A stretch of DNA of 64,000 nucleotides, taken from assembly GCA_964422035.1 (NCBI GenBank), contig CAYQZQ010000002.1, positions 1,612 to 65,611 on the forward strand, in the 5' to 3' direction. Position 1 is the stretch's first letter; every line of letters starts with the position of its first letter. The position numbers and the translations under genes are program-made. The DNA comes from an uncultured Pseudomonadales bacterium. Lineage in GTDB: Bacteria; Patescibacteriota; Microgenomatia; UBA1400; Chazhemtobacteraceae. The notes under the pieces were generated by a model. That model worked only from the letters and a program-made list of their open reading frames with translations, was not told the DNA's origin and did no database searches. Below are positions 18,964 through 62,133 of this stretch, one piece after another.

Positions 18964-19413
18964 ATGCGTTGTCCATATTGTGGTCATGAAGAAAGTGGGG
19001 TAATAGAGAGCAGACCTACGGGTGGTGGTGAGGCAATTAGGCGCCGCAGAGAGTGTGAAGATTGTAATAAACGATTTACCACTTATGAGAGAGTGGGGAA
19101 TATTGATTTGGAGGTTAAAAAAAGAAATGGTGGTCAAGAAGAGTTTGATAGAGCAAAACTGGAGAAAGGGATTGTCAAAGCTTGTTGGAAGAGGGGCGTA
19201 GATGAGGAGCAAATTGAAGAGTTGGTTGATGAGATTGAGATGGGATTGCTGAACAAAAGATCTACGGTGGTGGAAAGTACTGATATAGGGAAAATGGTTT
19301 TGGAAAGATTAAAGGAGATAGATGGTGTAGCCTATTTGAGGTTTGCTAGTGTGTATCTGGATTTTGAAAATCTTGATGACTTTAAGGAAGTGATCAAAAA
19401 AGTGAACGATTGA
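18964..19413 (+). CDS. nrdR: Transcriptional repressor NrdR (zinc ribbon + ATP cone)
   Basis: 149 aa. MRCPYCG...ECEDCNKRFTTYERV zinc ribbon followed by an ATP-cone domain. Confidence 0.9.
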   Translation: MRCPYCGHEESGVIESRPTGGGEAIRRRRECEDCNKRFTTYERVGNIDLEVKKRNGGQEEFDRAKLEKGIVKACWKRGVDEEQIEELVDEIEMGLLNKRSTVVESTDIGKMVLERLKEIDGVAYLRFASVYLDFENLDDFKEVIKKVND

Positions 19414-19434
19414 ATTAAAAATTAATTAAAAATA

Positions 19435-21957
19435 ATGTCTGTATCTGCAACTGTATATAAAAAAACTGAGGAAAATAATAATGATAACTCTGGTCTAGAT
19501 AATATGGTTAAAGAGCTAAAAGAGATGTCAAGTAGTGATAGCAGGCAAGAAGCTAGAGATAAATATAACGAGATCATAAAAGAAATTAAAGAAAAGATTG
19601 GTGAAATGCCTAAGATGCCCTCTGGTTTACCAAAAGGGAAATGGACAAAGCAAGCAATAAAAGTTTTAAAAGAGAGGTATTTGGATAGAGATAAGAATGG
19701 TGAAGTTATAGAGACTCCCGAGGAGATGATATGGAGAGTTTCTTGGGAGATTGCTAGTGCAGAAGCAAGGTGGGGAGCTGATAGAGATCAAGTTTTAAAA
19801 CAAGCCAAAACCTTTTTCAAATTATTAGTTTCGCGAAATTTTTTACCTAATTCGCCGACTTTGATGAATGCCGGTAAGGGGAACAATCTGCAGTACTCTG
19901 CGTGTTTTGTTCTTCCAGTTGAGGATAGCTTGGAGGGAATATTTGATGCTATTAAGTGGCAAGGATTAATTCATCAATCAGGTGGAGGAACAGGTTTTAG
20001 TTTTTCGAGATTGCGTTCGCAGGGTAGTTTGGTAAGTAGTTCTCGCGGGGTTGCTTCTGGTCCGGTATCATTTATGAAGATCTTTGATTCGGCAACACAG
20101 CAAGTTAAGCAGGGAGGAACAAGAAGAGGGGCTAATATGGGTATGTTGAGAATTGATCATCCAGATATCAGAGAGTTTATTACCTGCAAACTTGAAGGTG
20201 GAATTACAAATTTTAATATTTCTGTTTTGGCAACTGATGAGTTTATGAAGGCTTTGGATAGTGATGAAGAATATGATTTGATTGATCCAAGTACAGAAAA
20301 GCCGGTTGGGAAAGAGAAGGCAAGAGAAGTTTTTGAAGAAATTTGTCAGGCAGCTTGGCAGTCGGGTGATCCGGGAATGGTATTTGTGGATAAAATAAAT
20401 GATGGTTCTGCTAATCCGGTACCAGCTTTGGGTCCTGTGGAAAGCACGAATCCTTGTGGTGAGCAACCGTTATATCCTTTTGATGCTTGTAATTTGGGGA
20501 GTATATTTTTGAGATACTATGTTAAGGATGATGATGGAGAATCTAAAGTTGATTGGGATAAGTTAAAAGAAAGTGTTCATACTTCAGTTAGATTTTTAGA
20601 TAATGTTATTGAAGTAAATCCCTATCCTTTACCTCAGATTTGGAAAACTGTGCGAGGTTTGAGAAGAATTGGATTGGGGATTGGTGGTTGGTCTGATATG
20701 TTGTTTAAATTAGGCATTACCTATGATTCACAAGAAGCTTTTGAGTTAGCAGAGAAAATAATGGAGTTTATTCGTGATGAGGGTCACAAAGCGAGTAATA
20801 AGTTAGCAGAGGAGAGAGGAAGTTTTCCTTTGTGGGAGCAAAGTATATACGTGGATGAGAAGCCAATGAGGAATGCAACAGTGACAACTATTGCACCTAC
20901 AGGGACGATATCGATTATTGCAAATAATAGTAGTGGAGTAGAGCCGATATTTGCTTTAGCTTATATACACCATGTTAAGGATGAGCACCTAGATAGGAAG
21001 TTGACTTTTGTGAACCCCGTGTTTGAAGAGATAGCGAAAAAAGAGGGTTTTTGGAGTGATGATTTGAAGAAAAAAGTAGCTAAAACAGGAACTGTTAAGG
21101 ATATTGATGAAGTGCCTGAAAAATGGCAGGAGATTTTTATGACAAGTCATCAGATAAAACCAGATAGTCACGTAAAAATGCAGGCTGCCTGGCAGAAATA
21201 TACTGATAATGCGGTGAGTAAAACAATAAACTTGCCATTTGAGGCAGAAGTTGAAGATGTAGCCAAGGCATATCTTAAGGCGTATAGATTGGGATGTATG
21301 GGAATAACGGTATATCGTGATGGAAGTAAAGACCAACAAGTATTGAATGTGGGAAGTGAAGATGAAGAAAAGTCTGTAGAGGTTAAAAAATCAGGTATTA
21401 AGGATCAAGTGGCAGAGTTAAGAAGAAGACCCGAGAAGCTAGAGGGAAGCACATATAAGGTGAGAACACCAATTGGAAATGCCTATGTTTCGATTAATAG
21501 TGATGAGATGGGTAATCCATTTGAGGTGTTTATTACAGTAGGGAAGGCTGGTACCGATGTAATGGCGGATGCTGAAGCAATTGGCAGACTAGTGTCGTTG
21601 TCTTTGCGAATTCCAACTGAGCTGCCGGCGGAAACTATTGCTGAGCAGGTAGTAGAACAACTGGCTGGAATTGGAGGGTCGGGTTCGGTGGGATTTGGAA
21701 ACGGTAAAGTAAGATCGCTGGCAGATGGGGTGGCAAAGGCCTTAAGAGAGCATTTGGATGGAAAGAAGGTAAGTAAAGGAAATGGAGTTGAGGTTGAAAT
21801 TAAGCAGTCTGAGAGAGAGATGGAGATGATTGGGCAGCAAGCAGCACTGCCACTTACCAAGAAAAGACATGATATTTGTCCAGAATGTGGTCAAGCAAGT
21901 CTGGTATTAGAAGAAGGGTGCTCCAAGTGTTATGTTTGCGGGCATAGTAAATGCTGA
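19435..21957 (+). CDS. nrdJ: Class II (adenosylcobalamin-dependent) ribonucleoside-diphosphate/triphosphate reductase
   Basis: 840 aa. NLQYSACFVLPVEDSLEGIFD, the active-site NPCGEQPLYPFDACNLGS and the class II C-terminal zinc ribbon CPECG...CSKCYVCG. Confidence 0.85.
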   Translation: MSVSATVYKKTEENNNDNSGLDNMVKELKEMSSSDSRQEARDKYNEIIKEIKEKIGEMPKMPSGLPKGKWTKQAIKVLKERYLDRDKNGEVIETPEEMIWRVSWEIASAEARWGADRDQVLKQAKTFFKLLVSRNFLPNSPTLMNAGKGNNLQYSACFVLPVEDSLEGIFDAIKWQGLIHQSGGGTGFSFSRLRSQGSLVSSSRGVASGPVSFMKIFDSATQQVKQGGTRRGANMGMLRIDHPDIREFITCKLEGGITNFNISVLATDEFMKALDSDEEYDLIDPSTEKPVGKEKAREVFEEICQAAWQSGDPGMVFVDKINDGSANPVPALGPVESTNPCGEQPLYPFDACNLGSIFLRYYVKDDDGESKVDWDKLKESVHTSVRFLDNVIEVNPYPLPQIWKTVRGLRRIGLGIGGWSDMLFKLGITYDSQEAFELAEKIMEFIRDEGHKASNKLAEERGSFPLWEQSIYVDEKPMRNATVTTIAPTGTISIIANNSSGVEPIFALAYIHHVKDEHLDRKLTFVNPVFEEIAKKEGFWSDDLKKKVAKTGTVKDIDEVPEKWQEIFMTSHQIKPDSHVKMQAAWQKYTDNAVSKTINLPFEAEVEDVAKAYLKAYRLGCMGITVYRDGSKDQQVLNVGSEDEEKSVEVKKSGIKDQVAELRRRPEKLEGSTYKVRTPIGNAYVSINSDEMGNPFEVFITVGKAGTDVMADAEAIGRLVSLSLRIPTELPAETIAEQVVEQLAGIGGSGSVGFGNGKVRSLADGVAKALREHLDGKKVSKGNGVEVEIKQSEREMEMIGQQAALPLTKKRHDICPECGQASLVLEEGCSKCYVCGHSKC

Positions 21958-22487
21958 AGATGAAAAATAAAAAGGGATTGGTTTACGTTTTTACTGGAGA
22001 GGGAAAAGGGAAAACTAGCGTTGCAATGTGGACAGCAATTAGAGCAGCTGCTTGGGATAAGAGTGTATTGGTGATTGCTTGGTATAAAGAGAAAAAGTGG
22101 CCTACGGCGATGCAAAAGGTAAATAAAAAATTTAATAATCTTGAAATTAAAGTGGTTGGTAAGGGGTTTTATAAATTGCCAACTGATCATGCGACTGAGG
22201 ATGAACACAAAAAATCGGCAGTTGAGGGATTGAGAGAAGTTGTAAATAGTTTGGGTAAAATGGATGTTTTAGTTTTAGATGAGGTGATTAATGCTGTTGA
22301 TGACGGATTGATTGATAAAGAAGAGTTACTTGATGTTTTGGAAAAAAGAGGTGAAACCCATGTTGTATTGACGGGTAGGGGAGTTTTTGAAGAACTGGAG
22401 AAAGAGGCAGATTTGATAACGGAGATGAGAAAAGTTAAGCACCCTTTTGATAGGGGTATTAAAGCTGTAAAAGGGTTGGATTTTTAA
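21951..22487 (+). CDS. Cob(I)yrinic acid a,c-diamide / cob(I)alamin adenosyltransferase (CobO/BtuR, P-loop type)
   Basis: 178 aa. P-loop VFTGEGKGKTSVAMW, then VLVLDEV (Walker B-like), matching CobA/BtuR. It overlaps the nrdJ stop, consistent with supplying AdoCbl to NrdJ. Confidence 0.65.
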   Translation: MLKMKNKKGLVYVFTGEGKGKTSVAMWTAIRAAAWDKSVLVIAWYKEKKWPTAMQKVNKKFNNLEIKVVGKGFYKLPTDHATEDEHKKSAVEGLREVVNSLGKMDVLVLDEVINAVDDGLIDKEELLDVLEKRGETHVVLTGRGVFEELEKEADLITEMRKVKHPFDRGIKAVKGLDF

Positions 22488-22520: not shown

Positions 22521-22877
22521 ATGGCAAGAAAAGAGATTGAGAAAAGAAAACAGTCATCAGAAGATCAGGCACGTGAGCAAGTAGAGAGCTATATTGAGAA
22601 AGTTGAAAAAAGACCTGAAATTGATGAGGGGGATCAAACAGGGATGAAAAAAGGTGCTGATGATGTACAGATGCCCAAGCAGATAATAGACGAGGATAAT
22701 CAGATAGTTGCGGAATCTGTTGTAGAAGAACCAAAGATTGACCTACCATTGACTGAAGAAGAGGTAAGTGAGGGTTTGCATCACAAGATTGCGGATAGTG
22801 TGAAGTGGTTATCAGAGTGGTGTGTTTATGTTATTAAAAAATATCCTGGAAGGGTTTTTTACAAAGAAGATAAATAG
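22521..22877 (+). CDS. Hypothetical acidic protein
   Basis: 118-aa ORF rich in Glu/Asp/Lys. Its stop abuts the start of the ATPase gene at 22878. No recognisable domain. Confidence 0.35.
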   Translation: MARKEIEKRKQSSEDQAREQVESYIEKVEKRPEIDEGDQTGMKKGADDVQMPKQIIDEDNQIVAESVVEEPKIDLPLTEEEVSEGLHHKIADSVKWLSEWCVYVIKKYPGRVFYKEDK

Positions 22878-25208
22878 ATGGAAAATATAGCACAGTTATC
22901 CAGCTTAATTCAATGGGTGTTCGGGGCGGTACTTGTGTTGGGGGTATTTGTTTTGATAGTGGTGGGTTTGGGAATTTTGGTAATGCAGTGGATACGATAC
23001 AGGAACAGAGAAGAGGTGAGTTTAAATTTTGTGGTTATGGAGATTGAGGTACCTAGAGATAATGAGGTCAAGATCGATGCAGCAGAGCAGATGTTCTCTT
23101 CTTTATATTCAATTAAAAAGGGAGGATTTTGGCAGAAATTTAAGGCTCAACAGCATTTAAGCTTTGAGATCGTTGCCAAGAAGGAGGAGATAAGGTTTTA
23201 TGTTGCTTGCCATGAGGACTTGGCTTCTCTAATTGATAAACAAGTATCAGCTGTATATCCAGGAGCACAGGTTAAAAGAGTAGAAGAGCCAAATATTTTT
23301 AATGAAGAAGGTAAGGTTGAGTTTGCCCAGTTACAGTTATCTGAGAAGAGCTTTTATCCAATTAAGACTTATCAAGATTTAGCAACAGATCCGTTAAGTT
23401 CAATTACTTCCAGTTTGGCTGAATTAGAAGAAAATGAAGCTGCTGCTATTCAAGTGATTGTTACGCCAGCAGATAGTGACTGGAGCTCCAGCGGAGAAAA
23501 GTTTTTATCTGAAAGAAAGAGAGCGGAATCGGATCCGGAGAAGGCAGATTTTAAAATGAGTCCGGAGGATATGAAGTCTATTGATGAAAAGACGGATAAG
23601 CCTGGATTTTTAACTACGATAAGACTTGTGAGTATGGCAGAGAATAAATCTCAAGCAAAGGCTAATTTAAAAAATATGCAACGCTCTTTTGCTCAGTTTA
23701 GCTCTGATCAAAATAGATTTACTAAAAAGAAGATTTTTTTAAAAAGATCTTTTGTAATTGATTTTATATATCGCTATCAACCACTTTTTGGAGAAAATAG
23801 TTTACTGAACACTGAGGAGTTAGCCAGTGTTTGGCATATGCCTAACAAGACTGTTGAGACCCCTCATATTAAATGGTTGCCGGCTAAGATGGCTCCGGCT
23901 ACAGGAGGAATTCCAAATGAAGGATTGTATTTAGGAAAAAGTATATACAGGGGGCAGAAGAGAAAAATATATTTGTCTGACGAGGATAGGATGAAGCACA
24001 TGTATGTTTTAGGCAGAACAGGTACAGGTAAGACAGAGTTTCTTAAAAGTTTAATAATTCAAGATATGAGAGAAGGGAAAGGCATGTGCTTTTTGGAACC
24101 ACATGGTGAAGGTATTGAGGAGTTGTTGGAGTTAGTACCTCCAGAAAGGGCAGAAGATGTAATAGTTTTTGATCCGTCAGATACAGAGAGGCCAATGGGT
24201 TTTAATTTGCTGGAGGTAAATAATCCTGAAGAGATGCACTTTGTGGCTTCTTCGGTAATTAATTTAATGTATAAATTGTATGATCCTCACAAAACAGGGA
24301 TTATTGGTCCTCGGTTTGAACACGCGATAAGAAATGCCATGCTGACAGCCAGTGTTATTGAAGGGGCAACTTTTATTGAAGTAGTGAGAATATTGCAGAA
24401 TCAAGAATTTGTAAAAGAGTTGTTGCCTCGAATTGAAGATCCGATTGTGAAAAGCTATTGGACTGAACAGATTGCTCAAACAAGTGATTTCCATAAGAGT
24501 GAAGTTTTGGACTATATTGTCAGCAAGTTTGGTAGATTTATTACCAACAAGGTGATGCGCAACATTATTGGGCAAAGTGAAAGTGCTTTTAGTTTTAGGA
24601 AGGCAATGGATGATGGAAAGATTCTGTTTTTGAAGTTAGCCAAGGGGTTATTAGGAGAAGAAGATGCGAATTTTTTAGGATTGGTATTGGTACCAAAAAT
24701 TTTAGCAGCTGCTTTGTCCAGGCAGGATGTTCCCAAAGAAGAAAGAAAACCGTTTTACTTCTATGTTGATGAGTTTCAGAACTTTGCGACACCAGATTTT
24801 GCCCAGATTTTATCAGAGGCTAGAAAATACAGGTTAAGTCTGGCGGTAGCTAATCAGTTCGTAGGTCAGATTGATGAGGAGGTAAAGAATGCAATTTTTG
24901 GAAATGTAGGAAGTATGGTGGTGTTTAGAATGGGAGTTAGTGATGCTAATATCATGGAGCAGGAGTTTCAACCTGTGTTTAATCAGTCTGATTTGACTAA
25001 TATTCCGGCTCAGACAACGTATGTGAAGACCATAGTGCATGGAACGCCCGTTCCTCCGTTTTCGATGGATGTTTGGAGAGATCTAGAGGCTGAGAAGGAG
25101 CAGGGTAGTAAAAAGGTGGCTGAGATGGTGAAGGAGCTTTCGAGGTTGAAATATGGGCGAGATAGGGAAGAAGTTGAGAGAGAGATCAGAAGACGGGGTC
25201 AAATGTAA
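22878..25208 (+). CDS. Membrane-anchored P-loop ATPase of the TraD/TrwB/VirD4 type-IV coupling-protein-like family
   Basis: 776 aa. N-terminal TM helix. Walker A HMYVLGRTGTGKTEFLKS and Walker B FYFYVDEFQNF, followed by ARKYRLSLAVANQ and AIFGNVGSMVVFRMGVSDAN, which resemble the conserved T4CP C-terminal blocks. Confidence 0.5.
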   Translation: MENIAQLSSLIQWVFGAVLVLGVFVLIVVGLGILVMQWIRYRNREEVSLNFVVMEIEVPRDNEVKIDAAEQMFSSLYSIKKGGFWQKFKAQQHLSFEIVAKKEEIRFYVACHEDLASLIDKQVSAVYPGAQVKRVEEPNIFNEEGKVEFAQLQLSEKSFYPIKTYQDLATDPLSSITSSLAELEENEAAAIQVIVTPADSDWSSSGEKFLSERKRAESDPEKADFKMSPEDMKSIDEKTDKPGFLTTIRLVSMAENKSQAKANLKNMQRSFAQFSSDQNRFTKKKIFLKRSFVIDFIYRYQPLFGENSLLNTEELASVWHMPNKTVETPHIKWLPAKMAPATGGIPNEGLYLGKSIYRGQKRKIYLSDEDRMKHMYVLGRTGTGKTEFLKSLIIQDMREGKGMCFLEPHGEGIEELLELVPPERAEDVIVFDPSDTERPMGFNLLEVNNPEEMHFVASSVINLMYKLYDPHKTGIIGPRFEHAIRNAMLTASVIEGATFIEVVRILQNQEFVKELLPRIEDPIVKSYWTEQIAQTSDFHKSEVLDYIVSKFGRFITNKVMRNIIGQSESAFSFRKAMDDGKILFLKLAKGLLGEEDANFLGLVLVPKILAAALSRQDVPKEERKPFYFYVDEFQNFATPDFAQILSEARKYRLSLAVANQFVGQIDEEVKNAIFGNVGSMVVFRMGVSDANIMEQEFQPVFNQSDLTNIPAQTTYVKTIVHGTPVPPFSMDVWRDLEAEKEQGSKKVAEMVKELSRLKYGRDREEVEREIRRRGQM

Positions 25209-25262: not shown

Positions 25263-25335
25263 GGGCGGCTAGCTCAATGGTAGAGCGGTTGTCTTATATG
25301 CAACTGGTTCCAGGTTCGAATCCTGGGTCGCCCAC
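25263..25335 (+). tRNA. tRNA-Ile with anticodon UAU (reads AUA); CCA not encoded
   Basis: Manual cloverleaf: acceptor GGGCGGC/GUCGCCC, D arm GCUC-AAUGGUA-GAGC, anticodon stem GUUGU/GCAAC, loop C-U-UAU-A-U, T arm CCAGG-UUCGAAU-CCUGG, discriminator A. Confidence 0.8.
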
Positions 25336-25378: not shown

Positions 25379-25738
25379 ATGAATAAAAAAAAAGATAAGA
25401 AAAAAACAGACCGAGTTTTATCAGGTAAGAATTCTCCTCTAGCGGGGGAGTTGTTCGTTGATTTAGATGATAAAGGGGGGAAAGAGGATGTGATGATGAG
25501 TGGGGAGCTTGATATTGGTAAAAAGGGGAATCCGGTAACGATTATTATTAGAGATGAGAAGGAAGGCTCAGAGATTGAGTTTAATAATGTTAATCAAGCA
25601 TGGTTAATGTTAGAGGAGAAAAGAAAATCTTCGACTGGATGGTTGTCTCTAATTATTGGAGATGTGGGGAAAATAGTCGATGTCTTAAGGTTTGTTGCCA
25701 AAGCAACAGTTGAGGAATTAAAACAGTTGGTATCCTAA
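25379..25738 (+). CDS. Hypothetical protein
   Basis: 119-aa ORF with a Lys-rich N-terminus, lying between tRNA-Ile and the recombinase gene. No recognisable domain. Confidence 0.35.
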   Translation: MNKKKDKKKTDRVLSGKNSPLAGELFVDLDDKGGKEDVMMSGELDIGKKGNPVTIIIRDEKEGSEIEFNNVNQAWLMLEEKRKSSTGWLSLIIGDVGKIVDVLRFVAKATVEELKQLVS

Positions 25739-25746
25739 ATTGGAGT

Positions 25747-26622
25747 TTAAAGCTCTTTGAGTTGGGGTTTGTCTTGTTCGTCTTGGTCAATATCGATGTA
25801 TTTAAGGTAGCGTTCTGTGGTAGAAAGACGTTTATGGCCGACGATTTTAGAGACATAAACTAGGGGAGTGCCGCTTTTAAGTTGTTGGGCTATGAATGTG
25901 TGGCGTAGATCATTTACTTTTGCATCTTCAATGCCGGCAATACGGAAATAACGATCGATTGAGCTTCTGATGTTTCTGACAAGAAATTGATTGCCAGTTT
26001 TTGTTAAGAATACATGTTGATCATCACTTTTTGGTCGTACTTCTAGATATTCTCTTATAGCTTCTTTGGCTGGTTGGGTTAAAGGAACAGTGCGGCCCTC
26101 ATGTGATTCATAAGCCCTAATGGTAATTTTGTTGTTTTTTAAATTAAGGTCGTCTAGTTTAAGACTGGCAAGTTCTCCGATGCGAATACCGGCTTGAAGT
26201 AGGAGTTCTATAATTGCGCTGAGGCGTTTGTCGTCTCGGCATGCGTCACGAAGAGCTCTGTATTCAAGCTTGGAAAGAATGCGAGGGGGTTTCAGTTCGT
26301 ATTTGGGGTGACTTACGTCAGAAGCAGGATTTTTATCTAAAATATCTTTTGAGTTTAAAAAACGGAAAAATGATTTTATAGAATTGACTTTACGTGAAAT
26401 TGATTTAGCGGTGTAGTCTTGTTTGTTAAGTTCTTCTTTGAAACTGTCGATGTCTTGAGTACTGATTTCTTCAAGTTTGGTTTTGTCTTTATTAGTAACA
26501 AATTCCAGAAGTTGTTCAACGTCTTTGGTGTAGGCGAGTATAGTGGCAGTAGCTCGGCCTTTTTCTTCAAGGTGATTTTCGAAATCTTTATGATACTGGT
26601 TAAAAGGATTTGATTGATCCAT
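25747..26622 (-). CDS. Tyrosine site-specific recombinase, XerC/XerD-like
   Basis: 291 aa. N-terminal SAM-like core-binding domain (ILAYTKDVEQLLEF). Catalytic residues lie in AGIRIGELASLK (Arg), NDLRHTFIAQQ (His-x-x-Arg) and GHKRLSTTERYLKY (His ... Tyr). Confidence 0.75.
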   Translation of the reverse strand: MDQSNPFNQYHKDFENHLEEKGRATATILAYTKDVEQLLEFVTNKDKTKLEEISTQDIDSFKEELNKQDYTAKSISRKVNSIKSFFRFLNSKDILDKNPASDVSHPKYELKPPRILSKLEYRALRDACRDDKRLSAIIELLLQAGIRIGELASLKLDDLNLKNNKITIRAYESHEGRTVPLTQPAKEAIREYLEVRPKSDDQHVFLTKTGNQFLVRNIRSSIDRYFRIAGIEDAKVNDLRHTFIAQQLKSGTPLVYVSKIVGHKRLSTTERYLKYIDIDQDEQDKPQLKEL

Positions 26623-27096: not shown

Positions 27097-27125
27097 AAAA
27101 CCACTCCTTTGTGGAATGGTTTAGT

Positions 27126-27200
27126 GGTTGCGGGCCCAGGGAATTGAACCCTGGTTAAGTGAGATTATGAGCCTCACGAGATACCTACCTCCCGCCCGCA
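27126..27200 (-). tRNA. tRNA with anticodon CAU (Met, fMet or Ile2-lysidine type); CCA encoded
   Basis: Minus-strand fold: acceptor UGCGGGC/GCCCGCA, D stem GAGG/UCUC with a short loop, anticodon stem UGAGG/UCUCA, loop C-U-CAU-A-A, T arm CCAGGG-UUCAAUU-CCCUGG, then A + CCA. Neither a 6-bp T stem nor a 5-bp T stem with one extra nucleotide gives a standard cloverleaf. Confidence 0.7.
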
Positions 27201-27292
27201 TGTTAATGTCTTGCAACAAGTATAATCTTACCACGAGGCTGGATTGAGCTCAAGTTATTAGATAGATGGTAAAATAGTAGTGTGATTTTCTG

Positions 27293-27366
27293 GCAGGGTA
27301 GCTCAGTTGGTTAGAGCGAAGGAATCATAAACCTTAGGTCGGGAGTTCGAATCTCCCCCCTGCCAC
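27293..27366 (+). tRNA. tRNA with anticodon CAU (Met, fMet or Ile2-lysidine type)
   Basis: Acceptor GGCAGGG/CCCUGCC, D arm GCUC-AGUUGGUUA-GAGC, anticodon stem AAGGA/ACCUU (A31-A39 mismatch), loop A-U-CAU-A-A, T arm GGGAG-UUCGAAU-CUCCC, discriminator A. Confidence 0.85.
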
Positions 27367-35584: not shown

Positions 35585-36700
35585 ATGCTTGAGCCTGAGT
35601 ATCAAATAACGAATGAAATTTTGAAAAATATTGGTGTGATTGAGGCGGCAAAGGAGGTTATTAATAACGCTCCATTGGTGCCGGCTTGGGAAGCAAGATT
35701 TAAGGAAGAGGCAAGGGTAAAAACGGTACATTATGGCACACATGTTGAAGGTAATGATTTAACGTTTGAGCAGGCCCAGAAAATTGTTCAAGAAAAGTCA
35801 GAAAGAGATGAAAATGCTATGGAGGTGGCAAGGAGAGCCAGAGTGGTGGCTAGAGATAGAGATGTCCAAGAGGTAATAAATTATCGCAATGTGTTGGATT
35901 ACATTGATAGGAAAGTGAAAGAGTCTAGGGAGTTAGAAAAGGATGGGTTTGAATACACTAAAAGGCAAATGTTGGAGATGCATGCTCTAAGTGTGGAAAA
36001 GATTATGTCAGTTGATGAGGTGGGTGTTTTTCGTGATAAGCAAGTAGTTATTAGAGGAGTTAGAAAGGGCGATATTGTAAGGAGGCCGCCTAACGCAGTC
36101 GAGGTTCCTTATCAAGTTGAAGCATTTTTTAAATGGCTTAATAGTGAGGAAGCCAATAAGATACATCCGGTTTTAAGAGCAGGAATAGTTCATTATGAGT
36201 TATCCAGAATTCATCCATTTACAGAAGGTAATGGAAGGACGGCAAGAGGAATGGTTTTGCTTTTGTTGGCGATTGAGAACATTGATGCTAGAAGATTTTT
36301 TAGTATCGAAGAACATTTTGATAAGAATATAGTTGACTATTACGATGCTTTTATAAAAGTGGAAGAAGCGGGGGGAGAGATGACAGAGTGGTTGGAGTTT
36401 TTTAGTAAAGCTTTGGCAGTTGAGATGGAAAAGGTTAAAGAGAGAATAAAAAGAATTTCTATGGATAGTAGATTAAGAGGAAAGATGGGAAAACAAGTAG
36501 CTTTGAAAGAAAGGCAGATTAAGCTGATTGAGTATTTGGAGTCACATGAATGGTTGAGGATGAGTGAGGCAAGAAAAATCTTGCCGATGGTAAGTGATGA
36601 TACAATCTTGCGTGATATTAAGGATTTAATGGATAAGGATTTATTGAAGAAAAAGGGGAAGACTAAAGGTGCTCGTTATGCGTTAAAATCATTATCATGA
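35585..36700 (+). CDS. Fic/DOC-family protein (predicted AMPylase) with a C-terminal winged-helix domain
   Basis: 371 aa. Canonical Fic motif HPFTEGNGRTARGM (HPFx[DE]GNGRxxR). The C-terminal about 70 aa look like wHTH. Its stop overlaps the ligase start (ATGA). Confidence 0.85.
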   Translation: MLEPEYQITNEILKNIGVIEAAKEVINNAPLVPAWEARFKEEARVKTVHYGTHVEGNDLTFEQAQKIVQEKSERDENAMEVARRARVVARDRDVQEVINYRNVLDYIDRKVKESRELEKDGFEYTKRQMLEMHALSVEKIMSVDEVGVFRDKQVVIRGVRKGDIVRRPPNAVEVPYQVEAFFKWLNSEEANKIHPVLRAGIVHYELSRIHPFTEGNGRTARGMVLLLLAIENIDARRFFSIEEHFDKNIVDYYDAFIKVEEAGGEMTEWLEFFSKALAVEMEKVKERIKRISMDSRLRGKMGKQVALKERQIKLIEYLESHEWLRMSEARKILPMVSDDTILRDIKDLMDKDLLKKKGKTKGARYALKSLS

Positions 36701-38397
36701 AGATAGGAAAACTTGCAGAGAAATTACAGACGATAGAAAATACAGACTCGCGAAATGAGATGATCGTGCTTTTGGCTGATTTATTTGAAGAAGCTGATGT
36801 GGAAGAGGTGGATAAATTGGTCTATTTGAGTTTGGGTAGGTTAGGCTCTTTATTTGATAATCCGGAGTTTAATTTGGCTGAAAAACAAGTTCAAAAAGCA
36901 ATAACAAGAGCATATGAAAAAGATCTGAAGAGCGTAAATGAGCTGTATAAAGATATTGGGGATTTGGGGAAGGTAGCTGAAAAATTGGCATCAGACGATG
37001 AGGGTAATGGTTTTAGTGTTACGGAGGTGTGGGAGAGTTTAAAAAGAATAGCAGATGATAAGGGTGAGGGTAGTCAAGATAGGAAGATTCAAAATCTAGC
37101 TGACTTGTTAGATAAGATTGAGCCATTGGCGGCTAGATATGTGGTGAGAGTGGTAATTGGTAAATTGAGATTGGGGTTTTCTGATAAGACGGTTTTAGAT
37201 GCAGTTTCGTGGATGAAAAGAGGAGATAAAAGTGCCAAGGGTGAGTTAAAAAGAGCTTATCAAGTTCATCCTGATGTAGGTCGAGTTATTTATATGGCAA
37301 AGAAAGTCGGTATTGAAAAAACTGTGGAAGACACAAAGCTTGAGTTGGGAGTGCCGATAAGTCCGATGCTGTGCCAAAGATTGAAGACTACTAAAGAGAT
37401 GGTTGAGAAGATGGGTAAAGTGGCGGTGGAGCCTAAGTTTGATGGTCAAAGAGTTCAGATTCACTTTAAAAGAGATGGGAAAAAATGGAAAGCAAGAGCA
37501 TACACAAGAAACTTGGAGGAAATAAGCCATATGTTGCCTGAGTTGGACAGGTTGAGTGAGGAGGTAGAAGTGGATGAGTTAATTTTGGACAGTGAAGCGG
37601 TGGGATATGATCCTGAAACAGGTGAGATGTTGTCTTTTCAGAAAACTATGACGAGAAAAAGAAAACATGAAGTTCAAAGTCAGGCGGATAAGATTCCTTT
37701 AAAGTTTTATGTTTTTGATGTTTTATATATTGATGGAGAGAGCCTGGTTGACAAAGGTTATCAAGAAAGAAGGAAAAGGTTACAAGAGGTTGTTGGTAAA
37801 GGAGATTTGTTAATTGTTGATGAGCATTGGGAGACTGATGATGCAGATGCAATTAGAGAGCGTCATCATCAACTGGTCAATAGAGGACTGGAGGGAGTAA
37901 TTGTGAAAAAACTTGATAGTAAGTATGTGCCAGGCAGAACAGGCTGGAGATGGGTGAAGATGAAAGAAGATGAAGATTCTCACGCGAAGTTGATTGATAC
38001 TGTTGATTGTGTGGTGATGGGTTATTACAAGGGAAAGGGAAAAAGAGCGCAGTTTGGAGTGGGGGCCTTTTTGGCAGGGGTGAGAAAAGAGAAAGACATT
38101 GTAACTATTACAAAAGTGGGAACGGGATTGACGGATGATCAATTTAAGGATTTAAAAGATAGGCTTGATAAATTAGAGGTGAAAGATAAACCTAAAGAAT
38201 ACAAAGTTGATAAGAATATGGAGCCTGATGTCTGGGTTTCAGCTGATTTGATGGTTGAGCTTGCGGCTGATGAGGTGACAAAAAGTCCTATACATACTGC
38301 GGGCGTAGCACTTCGTTTTCCAAGACTGATTCGATTTAGGGATGATAAAAATGTTGATCAAGCAACTTCTTTGGAGGAAGTTGAGAGCATGAGTTAA
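36697..38397 (+). CDS. ATP-dependent DNA ligase
   Basis: 566 aa. Adenylation motif I VEPKFDGQRVQIH (KxDGxR), motif III/IV region (FYVFDVLYIDGE), motif V (EGVIVKK) and an OB-fold C-terminus. Confidence 0.85.
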   Translation: MKIGKLAEKLQTIENTDSRNEMIVLLADLFEEADVEEVDKLVYLSLGRLGSLFDNPEFNLAEKQVQKAITRAYEKDLKSVNELYKDIGDLGKVAEKLASDDEGNGFSVTEVWESLKRIADDKGEGSQDRKIQNLADLLDKIEPLAARYVVRVVIGKLRLGFSDKTVLDAVSWMKRGDKSAKGELKRAYQVHPDVGRVIYMAKKVGIEKTVEDTKLELGVPISPMLCQRLKTTKEMVEKMGKVAVEPKFDGQRVQIHFKRDGKKWKARAYTRNLEEISHMLPELDRLSEEVEVDELILDSEAVGYDPETGEMLSFQKTMTRKRKHEVQSQADKIPLKFYVFDVLYIDGESLVDKGYQERRKRLQEVVGKGDLLIVDEHWETDDADAIRERHHQLVNRGLEGVIVKKLDSKYVPGRTGWRWVKMKEDEDSHAKLIDTVDCVVMGYYKGKGKRAQFGVGAFLAGVRKEKDIVTITKVGTGLTDDQFKDLKDRLDKLEVKDKPKEYKVDKNMEPDVWVSADLMVELAADEVTKSPIHTAGVALRFPRLIRFRDDKNVDQATSLEEVESMS

Positions 38398-52042: not shown

Positions 52043-52094
52043 TAAGAAAAGGTCCGCCTGATGATTGTGTTATCAATTTAATAAGAATTTGCCT

Positions 52095-52982
52095 ATGAGA
52101 AAGTCCTTTTTCATATTTTTATTGGTTATTTTACCTTTTTTTAGTTTAGGCACGATTTGGGCTCAAGAGCCGGATGATGCTAATTTATCTACTGAAGTAG
52201 CAACTGAGGCAGGATCTGCAAGCTCTTCAGCGGTGGTAATTATAGAGGAAAAAGAGAACTTAACTGAGCCTAAGCAGTCAAAAAGCAGGCTGGAAAGAGT
52301 GTTGGAGTCAAAGGATGTGGGAGAGTTGAGTGTAACTAATTTTTTACAGGTTGCGATAAGAAGAGCTGTTAGCCAGGGTGTGCCTGCAAATACGATTGTT
52401 TTGATGCTTTTGTTTCCTTTGGTGGCTGCGATTATTGCTGCGGCCAGGCATATTGTGGGGTTGAAAGGTTTTGGTATTTTTACTCCGGCTGTTATCTCGG
52501 TAGCGTTTCTGTCTACTGGTGTGGGTGTGGGTGTGTTGTTGTTTTTGGGGATTATTGTGGTAGCTACTTTAGGGCGAATGATTATTCGTAAGATGAGGCT
52601 GCCTTCTTTGCCCAGGCTGGCTTTGCTTTTGTGGTTTGTGTCATTGGGAGTGTTGGGGTTGATACTGGCTTCGCCCTGGTTGAATTTGAATAGCTTGATA
52701 ACCATCAGCATTTTCCCTATTTTGCTTTTGGTGCTGTTGGCTGAGACGTTTATCAGAGTTCAGATCACTAGAAGTTTCAGAGAAGCAATGAGGCAGACAT
52801 TCCAGACGTTTGTGTTGGCCTTGTTATCGTTTTTGGTGATGAGTACGCAAGCTTTGCAGGAATGGGTGCTTTTAAACCCGGAAATTTCGGTAATTATGAT
52901 TGCGGTGTTAAATATCATGATTGCCAAGTACGGTGGGCTAAGACTTTTGGAGATGTGGCGTTTTAGAAAGATAATTAAGTAA
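52095..52982 (+). CDS. Secreted N-domain + 7TM membrane protein, candidate 7TM module of an ATP-grasp amidoligase system (7TM_transglut-like)
   Basis: Signal peptide MRKSFFIFLLVILPFFSLGTIWAQE, an extracytoplasmic region of about 80 aa, then seven hydrophobic helices. Its stop is 4 nt before the ATP-grasp gene start. Start was placed at the signal-peptide Met inside ORF 52065..52982. Confidence 0.55.
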   Translation: MRKSFFIFLLVILPFFSLGTIWAQEPDDANLSTEVATEAGSASSSAVVIIEEKENLTEPKQSKSRLERVLESKDVGELSVTNFLQVAIRRAVSQGVPANTIVLMLLFPLVAAIIAAARHIVGLKGFGIFTPAVISVAFLSTGVGVGVLLFLGIIVVATLGRMIIRKMRLPSLPRLALLLWFVSLGVLGLILASPWLNLNSLITISIFPILLLVLLAETFIRVQITRSFREAMRQTFQTFVLALLSFLVMSTQALQEWVLLNPEISVIMIAVLNIMIAKYGGLRLLEMWRFRKIIK

Positions 52983-52986
52983 GGCA

Positions 52987-54321
52987 ATGGCCAAGTTAAG
53001 TGATATTCTAGGAATCAATGCGAGAAGTAAACATTATCTGAGACTGAATTACAAGCAGTCTCGGAGAATGGCGGATAGTAAGTTAAAATCCAAACTGTTT
53101 TTGGAAAAACATGACATTCCAGTTCCTGAGACGTATGCTTTGTTTGAGGATAGGGAAGAGGTTGATGAGTTTGACTGGTTAAGTCTAAATGGCGCTTTTG
53201 TAATAAAGCCGGTAAATGGACTAGGTGGTGAAGGAATTTTAGTGGTTAAGAAAAAAGCTAAATATGCAGGTGAGTGGTATTTGATGGATGGGAATAAGAT
53301 TAATTTTGAAGATTTGAAGTTGCACGCCAATGATGTTTTACAGGGAAGGTATAGTAAGAACAATTTACCTGATAAGGCTCTGGTTGAGAGAAGAATTAAG
53401 ATTCACCCAAAGTTTGGGAAAATTGCTAAAGGGGGTACTCCTGATATTAGGACGATTGTCTATAACAAAGTGCCTGTTATGGCAATGTTGAGGATACCAA
53501 CGGAGGAGAGTAAGGGAAAAAGTAACTTGCATCAGGGGGCTATTGGTTTAGGGGTGGATATGGCAACTGGAATTACTACCTATGGAGTGTGGCATGATAA
53601 TTTAATTAAGTATTTTCCGGGTACAAAAAAGAAGGTGAATGGTATTGTGGTTCCGCACTGGACGAAGATATTGGAGATAAGTAGTAAGATTCAACACGAA
53701 AGGCCTTGCCTGGGATATTTTGGAGCAGATATCTTGATTGATAAAGATGAGGGACCTCAGGTGATTGAGTTGAATGACCAACCAGGCTTGTCTATTCAGA
53801 TTTGTAATAAGGCAGGACTAAGAAGAAGGTTGGAGAGAGTAGAAGGATTGTATGTCGAGACGGTTGAGAAAGGAGTTAAAGTTACTAAAACTTTGTTTGC
53901 TAGTGGATTTGCCAGGAAAGTTAAGAGTGTGGGTGAAAGACCTACTATTGGAATTTTTGAGACGGCTAGAATTAAGCCAGGAGGGAAAAGAAAGAAGCGA
54001 GTGGATGTGTCGGTTAAAATTGATACCGGTGCGTATAGCAGTAGTATTGATAGGGAGTTGGCTAAGAGATTTAAGTTACTGAAGGATGAAAATGTATTAT
54101 ATGAGAAAACTTTTAAATCTTCGTTGGGCAGGGAGGAGAGAAAAGTAATAATGGTGGATTTGAAATTACGAGGGAAAAGAGTGAGAGCTAGAGCAAGTGT
54201 TACAGATCGATCTGGTTTGAGAAGGAAGATGATTTTAGGCAGAAGAGATTTAAGAGATTTTCTTGTTGATCCAGCACAGTTTAAGCCTCGAGATAGGTAT
54301 GGGGAGAAGATTGAAAAATAA
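52987..54321 (+). CDS. Fusion of an alpha-L-glutamate-ligase-related (RimK-like, 'sugar-transfer-associated') ATP-grasp domain and a C-terminal retropepsin-like DTGA aspartic-protease-like domain
   Basis: 444 aa. N-terminal ILGINARSKHYLRLNYKQSRRMADSKLKSKLFLEKHDIPVPETY, FVIKPVNGLGGEGILVV, DIRTIVYNKVPVMAMLRIPTEESKGKSNLHQGAIGLGVDMATGIT and ELNDQPGLSIQ are ATP-grasp blocks of the RimK-related family. The C-terminal 140 aa carry KIDTGAYSSSID (D-T-G-A), as in the RimK-associated putative-protease family. Confidence 0.7.
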   Translation: MAKLSDILGINARSKHYLRLNYKQSRRMADSKLKSKLFLEKHDIPVPETYALFEDREEVDEFDWLSLNGAFVIKPVNGLGGEGILVVKKKAKYAGEWYLMDGNKINFEDLKLHANDVLQGRYSKNNLPDKALVERRIKIHPKFGKIAKGGTPDIRTIVYNKVPVMAMLRIPTEESKGKSNLHQGAIGLGVDMATGITTYGVWHDNLIKYFPGTKKKVNGIVVPHWTKILEISSKIQHERPCLGYFGADILIDKDEGPQVIELNDQPGLSIQICNKAGLRRRLERVEGLYVETVEKGVKVTKTLFASGFARKVKSVGERPTIGIFETARIKPGGKRKKRVDVSVKIDTGAYSSSIDRELAKRFKLLKDENVLYEKTFKSSLGREERKVIMVDLKLRGKRVRARASVTDRSGLRRKMILGRRDLRDFLVDPAQFKPRDRYGEKIEK

Positions 54322-54328
54322 GATGTAG

Positions 54329-55213
54329 TTACTGGTTGTGTCTTTTTTCAAAGTGTTTGATGATGCTTAGAGCAATGTTGTGTTGGGTGTATTTTTCTAA
54401 GCCAGTGAACTGGGGACCTCTGTTTACTTCTAATACGTAAGGCTTGTTTGTTTGCTGGTGAAGCATAATGTCTATGCCGGCTATTTCGGTGTGAAGAAGT
54501 CGAGAGGTTTTTTCAGCGAGTTGCTTTATTTTGGGGTTGTCCTGTAGGGGGAAAGGTTTGGCGGTGCCTCCTTGGGAGATATTGGATTTAAAACTGTCAT
54601 TGGGTGGGATACGGTGCATGACACCTATGGCTTGATAGCCGACGGTGAAGACTCTAATGTCTCCGTTGTTGGGAATAAACTCTCTGAACATAAATGATTT
54701 TGATTTTTTGTTTTGGTTTATGATGTTGATTGCCTGCTCTTTGCTTTCTACTTTATATACTCCCTGCCCTCTTTGGCCGCCGGTTTTGATAATTAGAGGA
54801 AATCTGTGGTTTTTTAGAGCAGCATCTGCTTGATCTGGTGAAAGAATGGTTGTGGTATAGGGAAAGTTAATATCGTTTTGTTTTTGTTTTAAGAGTTCGT
54901 GGATAGGGGTAAAAAATAGGTTGTAGCTGGGGTCAATATATTTTTGTTCTATGATGGTTGTGTGGTGTGTTTGGTGAAGGTAATGGCAGGTAAGATACCA
55001 AGGCCATTTTCTTTTTCCTACAGCGAGCAGGTAGATAAGATCAAAGTTTTTTAGAGATTTATTGCTAATGGTGGGGTGAAATTTTTTATTGGATGAGTGA
55101 ATGATTAGATCTTTTGAGCTACAGTTTATAAGTTGATGATTGCGTTTTTCCCCTTCTTGTTTGAGGCGATTGAAGTTGCTACTAGTTGTTTTGCCGACAA
55201 CTAAAATTTTCAT
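54329..55213 (-). CDS. RimK/LysX-like ATP-grasp ligase, second ATP-grasp enzyme of the locus, convergent
   Basis: 295 aa from MKILVVGK. FPLIIKTGGQRGQGVYKV (ATP-binding loop), FMFREFIPNNGDIRVFTVGYQAIGVMHRIPPNDSFKSNISQGGT and GIDIMLHQQTNKPYVLEVNRGPQF (Mg/ATP-grasp C-terminal motif). The upstream in-frame extension to 55369 was rejected because it overlaps mnmA. Confidence 0.7.
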   Translation of the reverse strand: MKILVVGKTTSSNFNRLKQEGEKRNHQLINCSSKDLIIHSSNKKFHPTISNKSLKNFDLIYLLAVGKRKWPWYLTCHYLHQTHHTTIIEQKYIDPSYNLFFTPIHELLKQKQNDINFPYTTTILSPDQADAALKNHRFPLIIKTGGQRGQGVYKVESKEQAINIINQNKKSKSFMFREFIPNNGDIRVFTVGYQAIGVMHRIPPNDSFKSNISQGGTAKPFPLQDNPKIKQLAEKTSRLLHTEIAGIDIMLHQQTNKPYVLEVNRGPQFTGLEKYTQHNIALSIIKHFEKRHNQ

Positions 55214-55293
55214 TGAATTTATTATACAGTGATAACAATGATATTTTGTCAGACAGGGATGTTTTTGGGATCGTCTGTGATAAAATATGGCCT

Positions 55294-62123: not shown

Positions 62124-62133
62124 GGGGTAATCT

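Follow-up and report, generated by a model that had tools for sequence, protein, structure and literature searches.

The 776-aa protein encoded in the window (the whole 64-kb stretch of DNA that was analyzed) is best explained as a coupling or energizing ATPase of a type IV secretion system (T4SS). We consider it moderately probable that this ATPase, which is common to the Patescibacteria and chromosomally fixed, serves a T4SS encoded elsewhere and works with a small adaptor. The protein combines a catalogued domain, DUF8128, with a motor of the VirD4/TrwB coupling-protein type; its gene sits in conserved housekeeping synteny, and the saccharibacterial ortholog is essential. Patescibacteria, which account for a large share of bacterial diversity, spend their lives attached to host cells; their T4SS is essential in the sole species that has been mutagenized. 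The features of the locus are as follows.

22521..22877, + strand, small acidic partner protein, 118 aa (ORF translation)
22878..25208, + strand, DUF8128 plus VirD4/TrwB-type coupling-protein ATPase, 776 aa (Pfam/NCBIfam, AF2, hhalign, Foldseek)
22914..22997, + strand, N-terminal transmembrane anchor, ~aa 13-40 (hydropathy; AF2 model)
23025..23912, + strand, DUF8128 (PF26449), predicted cytoplasmic alpha/beta domain, ~aa 50-345
23913..25082, + strand, RecA-like nucleotide-binding domain (NBD), T4CP (T4SS coupling protein) type, ~aa 346-735
24012..24035, + strand, Walker A GRTGTGKT, aa 379-386 (G379, G384 and K385 invariant)
24225..24572, + strand, all-alpha insertion within the NBD, ~aa 450-565, where T4CPs carry their all-alpha domain
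24753..24785, + strand, Walker B FYFYVDEFQNF, aa 626-636 (FYFYVDE, aa 626-632; D631 and E632 invariant)
25110..25202, + strand, conserved C-terminal helical hairpin, aa 745-775, motif LSRLKYGR
25263-25335, tRNA-Ile gene just downstream of the ATPase gene
25379..25738, + strand, second small neighbor, 119 aa, conserved, downstream of the ATPase gene (alignment)
25747-26622, - strand, tyrosine recombinase just downstream of the ATPase gene

The gene pair and the domains of the ATPase

A reading made earlier from the sequence alone (the sequence-only reading) had described a small acidic protein that adjoins a membrane ATPase, and both ORFs proved to be real. The 118-aa ORF (pI 4.8 and 29 Asp plus Glu residues, computed from the translation) ends in a TAG stop codon that directly abuts the ATG of the ATPase ORF, and the two genes are probably translationally coupled. 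The 118-aa protein begins with a charged stretch, continues with an acidic region of low complexity, and carries the conserved motif KIxLPL...WLSEWCVxxIKKYPGRVFY in its C-terminal part. Its homologs number only 60, it matched no Pfam family, and Collierbacteria- and Woesebacteria-like loci keep it upstream of the ATPase. Of the 86 loci, 78 have a small ORF in the equivalent position, directly upstream of the ATPase gene. These small ORFs are fast-evolving, and hhalign detected no homology among the upstream proteins of different classes, the best comparison (Microgenomatia with Dojkabacteria) reaching a probability of 25%. An iterative HMM search for the small partner had drifted by round 3, with 109 matches in the 86 loci, and its result was dropped. 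Because the small upstream protein is a conserved and probably translationally coupled neighbor, the partner role already suggested for it is plausible. The 119-aa ORF downstream of the ATPase gene was found by BLASTP in only 6 loci, all of the closest relatives (Collierbacteria- and Woesebacteria-like), and gave no match in the family searches; it is only a possible member of the ATPase module. Scans for promoters and terminators around the ATPase locus found about as many candidates as in shuffled sequence.

The single N-terminal transmembrane helix proposed for the 776-aa protein is borne out by hydropathy (~aa 13-40) and by the AF2 model (pLDDT 82.4), where aa 2-49 form one long helix. The anchor is followed immediately by the basic stretch RYRNRE; according to the positive-inside rule, the protein would be oriented N-out, C-in, with its remainder in the cytoplasm. 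The DUF8128 domain ends in the near-invariant motif EELAxxWHxPN. Walker A (GRTGTGKT), Walker B, and the blocks RKYRLSLAVANQ and VVFRMGVSD, which had been singled out in the sequence-only reading, were all located in the protein. G379, G384, K385, D631, and E632 are invariant among 35 diverse relatives and, judged by its motifs, the motor is predicted to be catalytically intact. The insertion at aa 450-565 comprises eight helices between the strands E428-431 and E582-586 (AF2 secondary structure). The C-terminal hairpin with its LSRLKYGR motif is kept as far as Saccharibacteria.

Assignment of the ATPase to the coupling-protein branch

The ATPase had been said to resemble T4SS coupling proteins and ATPases of the HerA/FtsK clade, and the Pfam, NCBIfam, and hhalign results agree on the VirD4/TrwB branch. 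The Pfam models TrwB_AAD_bind (PF10412; 29.5 bits, cut-off 20.5) and TraG-D_C (PF12696; 27.1 bits, cut-off 22) matched above their cut-offs, whereas FtsK_SpoIIIE and DUF87 remained just under their own; FtsK_SpoIIIE (PF01580) reached 22.2 bits against a cut-off of 24 and covered the P-loop only. The best NCBIfam match was the VirD4-like CD1115 family (NF045973) with 50.5 bits, under the equivalog cut-off of 250, and the TraD models gave 32-35 bits, under equivalog cut-offs of 366-648. With hhalign, TrwB was matched with a probability of 95.6% (E 1e-8) in an alignment that spans the NBD and the all-alpha domain, passing through the insertion at aa 450-565. When TrwB was used as a phmmer query, it directly matched 79 members of the ATPase family. 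These comparisons support a place for the protein among the HerA/FtsK-like ATPases, in the branch of the VirD4/TrwB coupling proteins.

Like the T4CPs VirD4, TrwB, and TraD, a group described by the Pfam families PF10412, PF12696, and PF02534 (T4SS-DNA_transf), the 776-aa protein has an N-terminal anchor, a RecA-like NBD with Walker A and B motifs, an all-alpha insertion, and a TraG-D_C region, and its gene has a small accessory gene directly upstream, comparable to trwA-trwB in R388. It differs from them in having one transmembrane helix where T4CPs usually have two, and in carrying an extra cytoplasmic domain of ~300 aa, DUF8128, between anchor and motor. Furthermore, its gene lies in the core chromosome, with no T4SS or relaxase gene found nearby, and is near-universal in one phylum and essential in Candidatus Southlakia epibionticum.

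The N-terminal region of ~300 aa had been regarded as unique and without recognizable similarity. This is incorrect, as the region corresponds to the catalogued and widespread Pfam family DUF8128 (PF26449). The PF26449 model was absent from the local Pfam copy used for the domain search; the family was found as precomputed annotation of the identical gene and of all 120 close homologs. A profile of the N-terminal region matched 3,099 cluster representatives (50%-identity clusters) at E<=1e-3, and DUF8128 was always fused to a coupling-type ATPase (~3,100 such clusters). In structure predictions, the fold of DUF8128 resembles that of the N-terminal domain of VirB4, with one of the compared predicted structures being of low confidence (pLDDT 49.9). 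Profile comparison gave no sequence-level link of DUF8128 to solved structures or to TrwK, and a literature search for "DUF8128" returned nothing.

Distribution and gene order

More than 6,500 homologs of the 776-aa protein were found. Full-length matches at 37-60% identity came from at least 599 species in all major classes of Patescibacteria; DUF8128 has the same distribution and also occurs in the Bacillus phage G and in SPO1-like phages. Across classes, the ATPase halves share 46-49% identity, a high value for such deep lineages. The affiliations of the homologs place the organism among the ultra-small bacteria of the Patescibacteria, as had been supposed.

The ATPase gene sits in conserved housekeeping synteny. 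Its neighbors in Microgenomatia are NrdR-RNR, the Xer recombinase, and DivIC, and the gene order with the recombinase, DivIC, TrpRS, and FtsH is kept in Collierbacteria- and Woesebacteria-like genomes. The neighbor is DnaX in a Parcubacteria-like group, and GyrB-GyrA in Saccharibacteria. The reported lack of adjacent relaxase or T4SS genes holds for the window, where none was found among the ORFs checked directly or named through synteny with annotated relatives (all except a few short ORFs), and the 86 Patescibacterial loci likewise showed no T4SS gene within ~10 kb. In a published survey (PMC12102498), VirD4-like T4CPs occurred in 2,918 of 3,035 Patescibacteria genomes and only 148 of 5,713 were near virB4. 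According to the same survey, Patescibacteria usually encode a T4SS near dnaA, and T4CP genes are often far from virB4 in ordinary systems. T4CP homologs were present in 96% of the genomes, counts that pool two paralog clades, compared to 80% for VirB4, so the ATPase may persist in some lineages that have no T4SS.

Essentiality of the saccharibacterial ortholog

The saccharibacterial ortholog of the 776-aa protein is SEML1_0142 of S. epibionticum, an assignment made by synteny and clustering and not by alignment of the SEML1 sequence itself. The saccharibacterial clade, represented by the synteny-equivalent protein P0284, is 39% identical to the 776-aa protein end to end, and its gene order agrees with the surroundings of SEML1_0141/0142 in Table S1 of Wang et al. 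(2023). In that Tn-seq table, SEML1_0142 was scored ES at T0, T1, and T2, with input insertions falling from 114 to 11, 11, and 9, and was flagged as a core and Patescibacteria-enriched family; its small upstream neighbor SEML1_0141 was scored GD/ES/ES. Neither gene was discussed in the main text of that paper. The saccharibacterial pair has the same composition as the pair in the window, namely DUF8128 plus ATPase and a small gene arranged upstream. However, the saccharibacterial ATPase is extended at its C-terminus by ~250 aa of low complexity, its small partner has no detectable similarity to the 118-aa protein, and its neighbors (YifB and GyrB/GyrA) differ from those in the window.

SEML1_0142 falls into class I, being scored essential from T0 on, whereas the majority of T4SS genes belong to class II. 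This timing could reflect a role that is different from, or additional to, that of the T4SS. The essential T4SS locus of S. epibionticum was reported to lack a recognizable coupling protein (PMC10633639). The later phylum-wide T4SS survey called the t4cp homologue of S. epibionticum non-essential, a statement that suits the dispensable paralog SEML1_0293. A link of the ATPase to competence finds no support. S. epibionticum can do without ComEC-dependent transformation (PMC12857230), whereas SEML1_0142 is essential.

Phage homologs

Gp156 of Bacillus phage G carries DUF8128 (HMM E 1e-18; hhalign probability 97%) together with a T4CP-like ATPase, and the match covers 89% of the query (E 6e-46). 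In the phage G genome, gp153 (TrbL/VirB6-like), the small gp154, and gp155 (VirB4-like, AAA_10/P-loop_TraG) immediately precede gp156. In SP8, an SPO1-like phage, a Replic_Relax protein is encoded after the homolog. Gp156 and the SPO1-like homologs (phrog_5156) are only 20-25% identical to the 776-aa protein and, unlike it, have no N-terminal transmembrane helix; gp156 has an internal hydrophobic segment instead, and in SP8 small transmembrane proteins are encoded upstream. Also in contrast to the Patescibacterial loci, the neighbors of the phage genes are of the VirB4-like and VirB6-like types or encode Replic_Relax. Most IMG/VR matches covered the ATPase half only, with one alone (L097) giving a weak DUF8128 match. 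The phage homologs offer a tractable Bacillus system for the study of DUF8128.

Proposed mechanism and alternative explanations

As a T4SS coupling or energizing ATPase, and by analogy with HerA/FtsK-like ATPases such as TrwB and VirD4, the 776-aa protein would most likely assemble into a ring at the membrane and hydrolyze ATP to drive a substrate into a translocation channel. The most likely channel would be the monoderm-type (MPF-FATA-like) T4SS that most Patescibacteria genomes encode elsewhere, near dnaA. DUF8128 may dock the motor onto VirB4/VirB3/VirB8-like parts in the inner membrane. The small, fast-evolving upstream protein could be a bound adaptor or regulator, comparable to those in the pairs CagZ-Cagbeta, TrwA-TrwB, and IcmSW-DotL. 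The substrate is probably protein because relaxases are generally lacking, with DNA as a further possibility. If the family is the missing T4SS motor, it provides a defined ATPase with a small partner for purification, depletion, and use as a substrate bait.

Less probable, and put forward here tentatively, is that the motor is essential independently of any T4SS. The DUF8128 ATPase and its small partner would then be a self-contained membrane translocase, or a machine for handling DNA or protein, that was exapted from a coupling protein for a core process such as chromosome handling at division or the export or import of a housekeeping macromolecule. Such a role would mark an unrecognized essential process. 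It is favored by the separation from T4SS genes in all 86 loci, by the housekeeping and often DNA-related neighbors, by the class I essentiality of SEML1_0142, and by the high identity of the ATPase halves between classes; the excess of T4CP homologs over VirB4 points the same way, and the authors of the survey allow for exaptation (PMC12102498). However, the phage G homolog lies within a VirB6-like/VirB4-like module, and distance from virB4 is common for T4CP genes of ordinary systems. The neighbors also vary by class, and those related to DNA may be a coincidence. The Xer and DivIC neighbors had prompted the idea of an FtsK substitute, and the 776-aa protein has neither the alpha and gamma domains nor the 4TM region of FtsK/SpoIIIE. 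The idea was rejected as a general explanation, as S. epibionticum has a genuine, complete, and essential FtsK (SEML1_0096, with PF01580, gamma, alpha, and 4TM domains), which excludes simple FtsK substitution in this species. Searches of the window and of 1.34 Mb of fetched loci yielded no FtsK homolog, but this sample is too small and biased for a claim of absence.

A bolder and rather doubtful possibility is that the DUF8128 ATPase and its small partner form an essential motor specific to Patescibacteria, in which a docking domain of VirB4 type is joined to a motor of VirD4 type. Such an evolutionary hybrid would either stand in for a VirB4 subunit within an atypical inner-membrane complex of a T4SS or act without a T4SS, and it would power the traffic of macromolecules between these epibionts and the host cell on which they depend. 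If so, the relatives in large Bacillus phages would point to a wider, unrecognized class of T4SS-like modules for DNA or protein transfer in viruses that infect monoderms.

That the protein is simply a divergent ATPase of the VirB4 class, serving to assemble or energize a T4SS or pilus biogenesis rather than as a substrate receptor, is unlikely. VirB4/TrwK gave the best structural matches in the PDB; the best Foldseek matches were full-length TrwK/VirB4 chains that covered both halves of the protein (alignments of 836-884 columns). VirB4/TrwK and the 776-aa protein share a two-part build, with an alpha/beta domain at the N-terminus and, after it, a RecA-like domain that contains a helical insertion. 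VirB3-VirB4 fusions are built in the order membrane anchor, N-terminal domain, ATPase, and the 776-aa protein follows the same order. However, the likeness of the N-terminal fold comes from predicted models, and profile comparison prefers TrwB, with hhalign giving VirB4/TrwK a probability of only 5.9% and similarity to TrwK being confined to the Walker B region. Similarly, the Pfam matches were to T4CP families, and the VirB4 models CagE_TrbE_VirB and AAA_10 were not found in the 776-aa protein by the Pfam search. Unlike VirB4/TrwK, the protein carries its own transmembrane anchor, and a separate VirB4-like protein is encoded in Patescibacteria (PMC12102498) and in phage G.

An anti-phage defense ATPase of the DndH/DptH, HerA, or Mad8 kind is highly improbable: the PADLOC matches cover the shared P-loop core only, no defense partner genes lie nearby, and the gene is core, syntenic, and essential, unlike those of defense islands. 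Finally, the tRNA-Ile gene and the tyrosine recombinase just downstream could mark an integration site, in which case a conjugative or integrative element would have left the ATPase gene behind or brought it along as cargo, but this is effectively refuted by the conserved synteny, the even composition throughout the 64-kb window, and the phylum-wide distribution of a near-universal family that is 37-60% identical across classes and has an essential ortholog; nor did the window ORFs that were checked include a relaxase or mating-pair gene. Because the gene order, including the recombinase, is conserved in the Collierbacteria- and Woesebacteria-like relatives, this enzyme is a resident Xer-type recombinase and not the integrase of a mobile element.

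Gene pair and predicted motor

Two adjacent genes were identified by ORF calling:

22521-22877, plus strand, small acidic protein of 118 aa (pI 4.8)
22878-25208, plus strand, protein of 776 aa with DUF8128 and a coupling-protein (T4CP)-type ATPase

The TAG stop codon of the first ORF directly adjoins the ATG of the second, in agreement with an earlier sequence-only reading, which had described an acidic protein abutting the ATPase. All motifs named in that reading were located in the 776-aa protein, namely Walker A (GRTGTGKT, aa 379–386), Walker B (FYFYVDE, aa 626–632), and the blocks RKYRLSLAVANQ and VVFRMGVSD. In 35 relatives (33–53% identity to the window protein), the catalytic residues G379, G384, K385, D631, and E632 are invariant. 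The single N-terminal transmembrane helix proposed earlier corresponds to a hydrophobic helix at ~aa 13–40. This helix is followed by a basic stretch, which implies an N-out, C-in topology, where everything beyond the helix would be cytoplasmic.

The suggested likeness to T4SS coupling proteins and the HerA/FtsK clade was upheld by the HMM searches proposed with it: TrwB_AAD_bind (29.5 bits, cut-off 20.5) and TraG-D_C (27.1 bits, cut-off 22) both exceeded their Pfam cut-offs, whereas DUF87, like FtsK_SpoIIIE, scored slightly below. The top NCBIfam match was the VirD4-like CD1115 family, at 50 bits and thus well under its equivalog threshold of 250 bits. A profile of diverse relatives matched R388 TrwB, a VirD4-type coupling protein, with a probability of 95.6% (E 1e-8), and the alignment extended from upstream of Walker A across the all-alpha insertion to past Walker B. 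In contrast, the probability was only 5.9% for R388 TrwK, a VirB4-type ATPase. The AlphaFold model of the 776-aa protein (65 homologs) was graded good (pLDDT 82.4, pTM 0.71). Together, the family matches, the TrwB and TrwK scores, and the model indicate that the motor is a predicted catalytically intact, coupling-protein-type HerA/FtsK-like ATPase.

N-terminal DUF8128 region

The N-terminal region, previously regarded as unique, is in fact DUF8128 (PF26449), which is precomputed in 120 of the 120 listed homologs. At E ≤ 1e-3, a profile of aa 1–345 matched the representatives of 3,099 clusters built at 50% identity (1,718 at E ≤ 1e-10), and the same T4CP-like ATPase was located C-terminal to DUF8128 in every long representative tested. 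The window ATPase is an ordinary member of this catalogued yet uncharacterised family. No sequence-level link between DUF8128 and solved structures was found. The top Foldseek matches of the full-length, high-confidence model were full-length TrwK/VirB4 chains (E ~3e-15, 836–884 columns), whereas the TrwB matches were limited to the ATPase half. This suggests that DUF8128 may resemble, in its predicted fold, the N-terminal domain of VirB4.

Proposed small upstream partner

In 78 of 86 loci, a small ORF lies immediately 5' of the DUF8128 ATPase. The families of these ORFs are class-specific (Microgenomatia, the window type among them, 20 loci; Parcubacteria-like, 18; Saccharibacteria, 7), with no detectable homology between families. 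Just 60 homologs of the 118-aa window protein were detectable, and it was assigned to no family. Small adaptors or regulators bound to a coupling protein are known from CagZ-Cagbeta, TrwA-TrwB, and IcmSW-DotL, and in R388 trwA is directly upstream of trwB. By analogy, the constant position, the stop/start abutment, and the rapid sequence turnover of the small protein fit a bound adaptor or regulator of the ATPase.

Genomic context

The window ORFs that were scanned with Pfam or named by synteny from annotated relatives have housekeeping roles, and genes for VirB4, VirB6, relaxase, and FtsK were not found among them, which is consistent with the earlier remark that adjacent relaxase and T4SS genes are lacking. 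In Collierbacteria-like and Woesebacteria-like contigs, the gene order is conserved: PBPs, Rce1-like, (M20), NrdR, class II RNR, small protein, DUF8128 ATPase, small protein, Xer-type recombinase (minus strand), DivIC, TrpRS, and FtsH. Thus, neither the downstream tRNA nor the recombinase marks a mobile element. A conjugative-element remnant, which the sequence-only reading had named as the alternative, is therefore ruled out or at least unlikely. In the Parcubacteria-like group, the ATPase is preceded by CysRS and followed by a 213-aa unknown protein and DnaX, and in Saccharibacteria it lies between YifB (upstream) and GyrB-GyrA (downstream).

Directly upstream of the pair (18964-22487), on the same strand and with short gaps, are NrdR, an 840-aa class II (B12-dependent) RNR, and a CobA/BtuR-type corrinoid adenosyltransferase; neither of the two relatives compared (L001 and L004) has the adenosyltransferase. 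A tRNA-Ile gene with the anticodon TAT (UAU) is located 55 nt past the ATPase gene (25263-25335); AUA is rarely read in this way in bacteria. Two divergent tRNA-Met (CAT) genes lie between DivIC and TrpRS (27125-27366), of which the plus-strand copy alone met the Rfam gathering score.

Distribution and a paralogous clade

The window protein has >6,500 homologs. The nearest 120 are 63–97% identical over the full length and belong to Collierbacteria, Woesebacteria, and other Patescibacteria. When one genome per GTDB species was searched, at least 599 loci matched, and 80 were kept. These match nearly end to end (36–66% identity) and come from Microgenomatia, Dojkabacteria, WWE3, Saccharibacteria, Berkelbacteria, Doudnabacteria, Magasanikbacteria, Uhrbacteria, Falkowbacteria, Peribacteria, and Paceibacterota. 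Between classes, identity is 46–49% in the ATPase half and 32–33% in DUF8128. Seven loci (L007, L010, L011, L015, L033, L052, and L083) carry MAG titles of Gammaproteobacteria, Bathyarchaeia, Limisphaerales, Methylomirabilota, or Bdellovibrionales, but nonetheless hold a Patescibacteria-type locus and neighbours; these contigs are likely mislabelled or mis-binned.

A published survey of 3,035 Patescibacteria genomes counted 5,713 genes for VirD4-like T4CPs in 2,918 genomes, with just 148 of these genes close to virB4, and found VirB4 in 2,417 genomes; its authors considered exaptation possible (PMC12102498). In our clustering, the window protein falls into one group with all fetched loci and the Saccharibacterial proteins. 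Further DUF8128 proteins with higher T4CP Pfam scores (P0162, P0188, P0198, P0215, and 15 others; 850–1,130 aa; 35–37% identity to the window clade) form a separate, paralogous clade, which probably corresponds to the SEML1_0293 type of S. epibionticum. Two such clades would explain why Patescibacteria genomes are reported in the literature to have ~two T4CP homologs each.

Link to an essential gene of S. epibionticum

Wang et al. 2023 (PMC10633639) give two T4CP-like genes for S. epibionticum in their Table S1. SEML1_0142 (1,019 aa; flagged as core and Patescibacteria-enriched family) was scored essential at T0, T1, and T2, with insertions dropping from 114 (input DNA) to 11, 11, and 9. The preceding SEML1_0141 (139 aa) was scored GD/ES/ES with zero insertions recovered. 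SEML1_0293 (921 aa) was non-essential. Among Saccharibacteria, the clade closest to the window protein (39% identity over the whole length) has the gene order of SEML1_0137-0146, and on this basis SEML1_0142 is taken to be its putative ortholog. The main text of PMC10633639 makes no mention of SEML1_0142. The later statement that the t4cp homologue is not essential (PMC12102498) fits SEML1_0293.

Phage relatives

PHROGs family phrog_5156, annotated as 'unknown function', was matched at 330 bits. Bacillus phage G gp156 aligned over 89% of the query (E 6e-46) and carries DUF8128 (hmmsearch E 1e-18; hhalign 97%). In phage G (L104, 86901-97150), it follows the TrbL/VirB6-like gp153, the small gp154, and the VirB4-like gp155 (P-loop_TraG, AAA_10), and gp153-gp156 make up a T4SS-like module. 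In the SPO1-like phage SP8 (L105), a Replic_Relax protein follows the DUF8128 homolog, with an Alp7A-like actin nearby. Only in these phages was the family found associated with T4SS-type genes.

Possible roles

The best-supported explanation, which we favour with some reserve, is a Patescibacteria-specific ATPase that would couple or energise a T4SS encoded elsewhere in the genome; DUF8128 would then act as a VirB4-like docking domain, with the small protein upstream as an adaptor. S. epibionticum is reported to have an essential T4SS locus without a recognisable coupling protein (PMC10633639). The main rival, an essential motor independent of T4SS, is considered less likely; the complete absence of T4SS neighbours in the Patescibacterial loci examined, a distribution wider than that of VirB4, and class I essentiality (already at T0) speak for it. 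Since S. epibionticum has a true and essential FtsK, an FtsK substitute was rejected, and a defence ATPase was likewise rejected or considered unlikely. New here are the domain interpretation, the proposed partner, the connection with an essential gene so far overlooked, and the relatives in phages.

Other observations in the window

The window (1-64000) has an extreme GC skew of +0.46 (G 18,511 vs C 6,837), positive in every 2-kb bin. On the coding strand, third-codon-position skew was +0.58 in one plus-strand gene vs -0.68/-0.69 in minus-strand genes. Because the skew keeps its sign across minus-strand genes, it is tied to the DNA strand and not to transcription, and amino-acid usage changes with the strand as a result (E 9.3% vs 3.5%, V 9.3% vs 3.6%, Q 3.0% vs 6.8%, T 3.6% vs 7.2%). 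The skew is +0.48 in the Collierbacteria-like and +0.23 in the Woesebacteria-like relative (L001, L004).

The region 59400-63015 (minus strand) may encode an uncharacterised envelope glycosyltransferase: it contains a 907-aa polytopic membrane protein with ~10 hydrophobic segments and no Pfam match at E ≤ 0.001, and the next ORF (293 aa, 62134-63015, minus strand) has the appearance of a family-2 glycosyltransferase. A RadA/Sms-like gene is close by (57609-58931). At 52065-55369, genes for a 7TM_transglut membrane protein and for a sugar-transfer-associated ATP-grasp protein, whose C-terminal region is aspartyl/zinc protease-like, are clustered with an oppositely oriented gene for a RimK-like ATP-grasp protein; the cluster is possibly a peptide-ligation or modification module. 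A Fic-domain protein and, after it, an ATP-dependent DNA ligase of archaeal/eukaryotic type with three ligase domains are encoded at 35585-38397.
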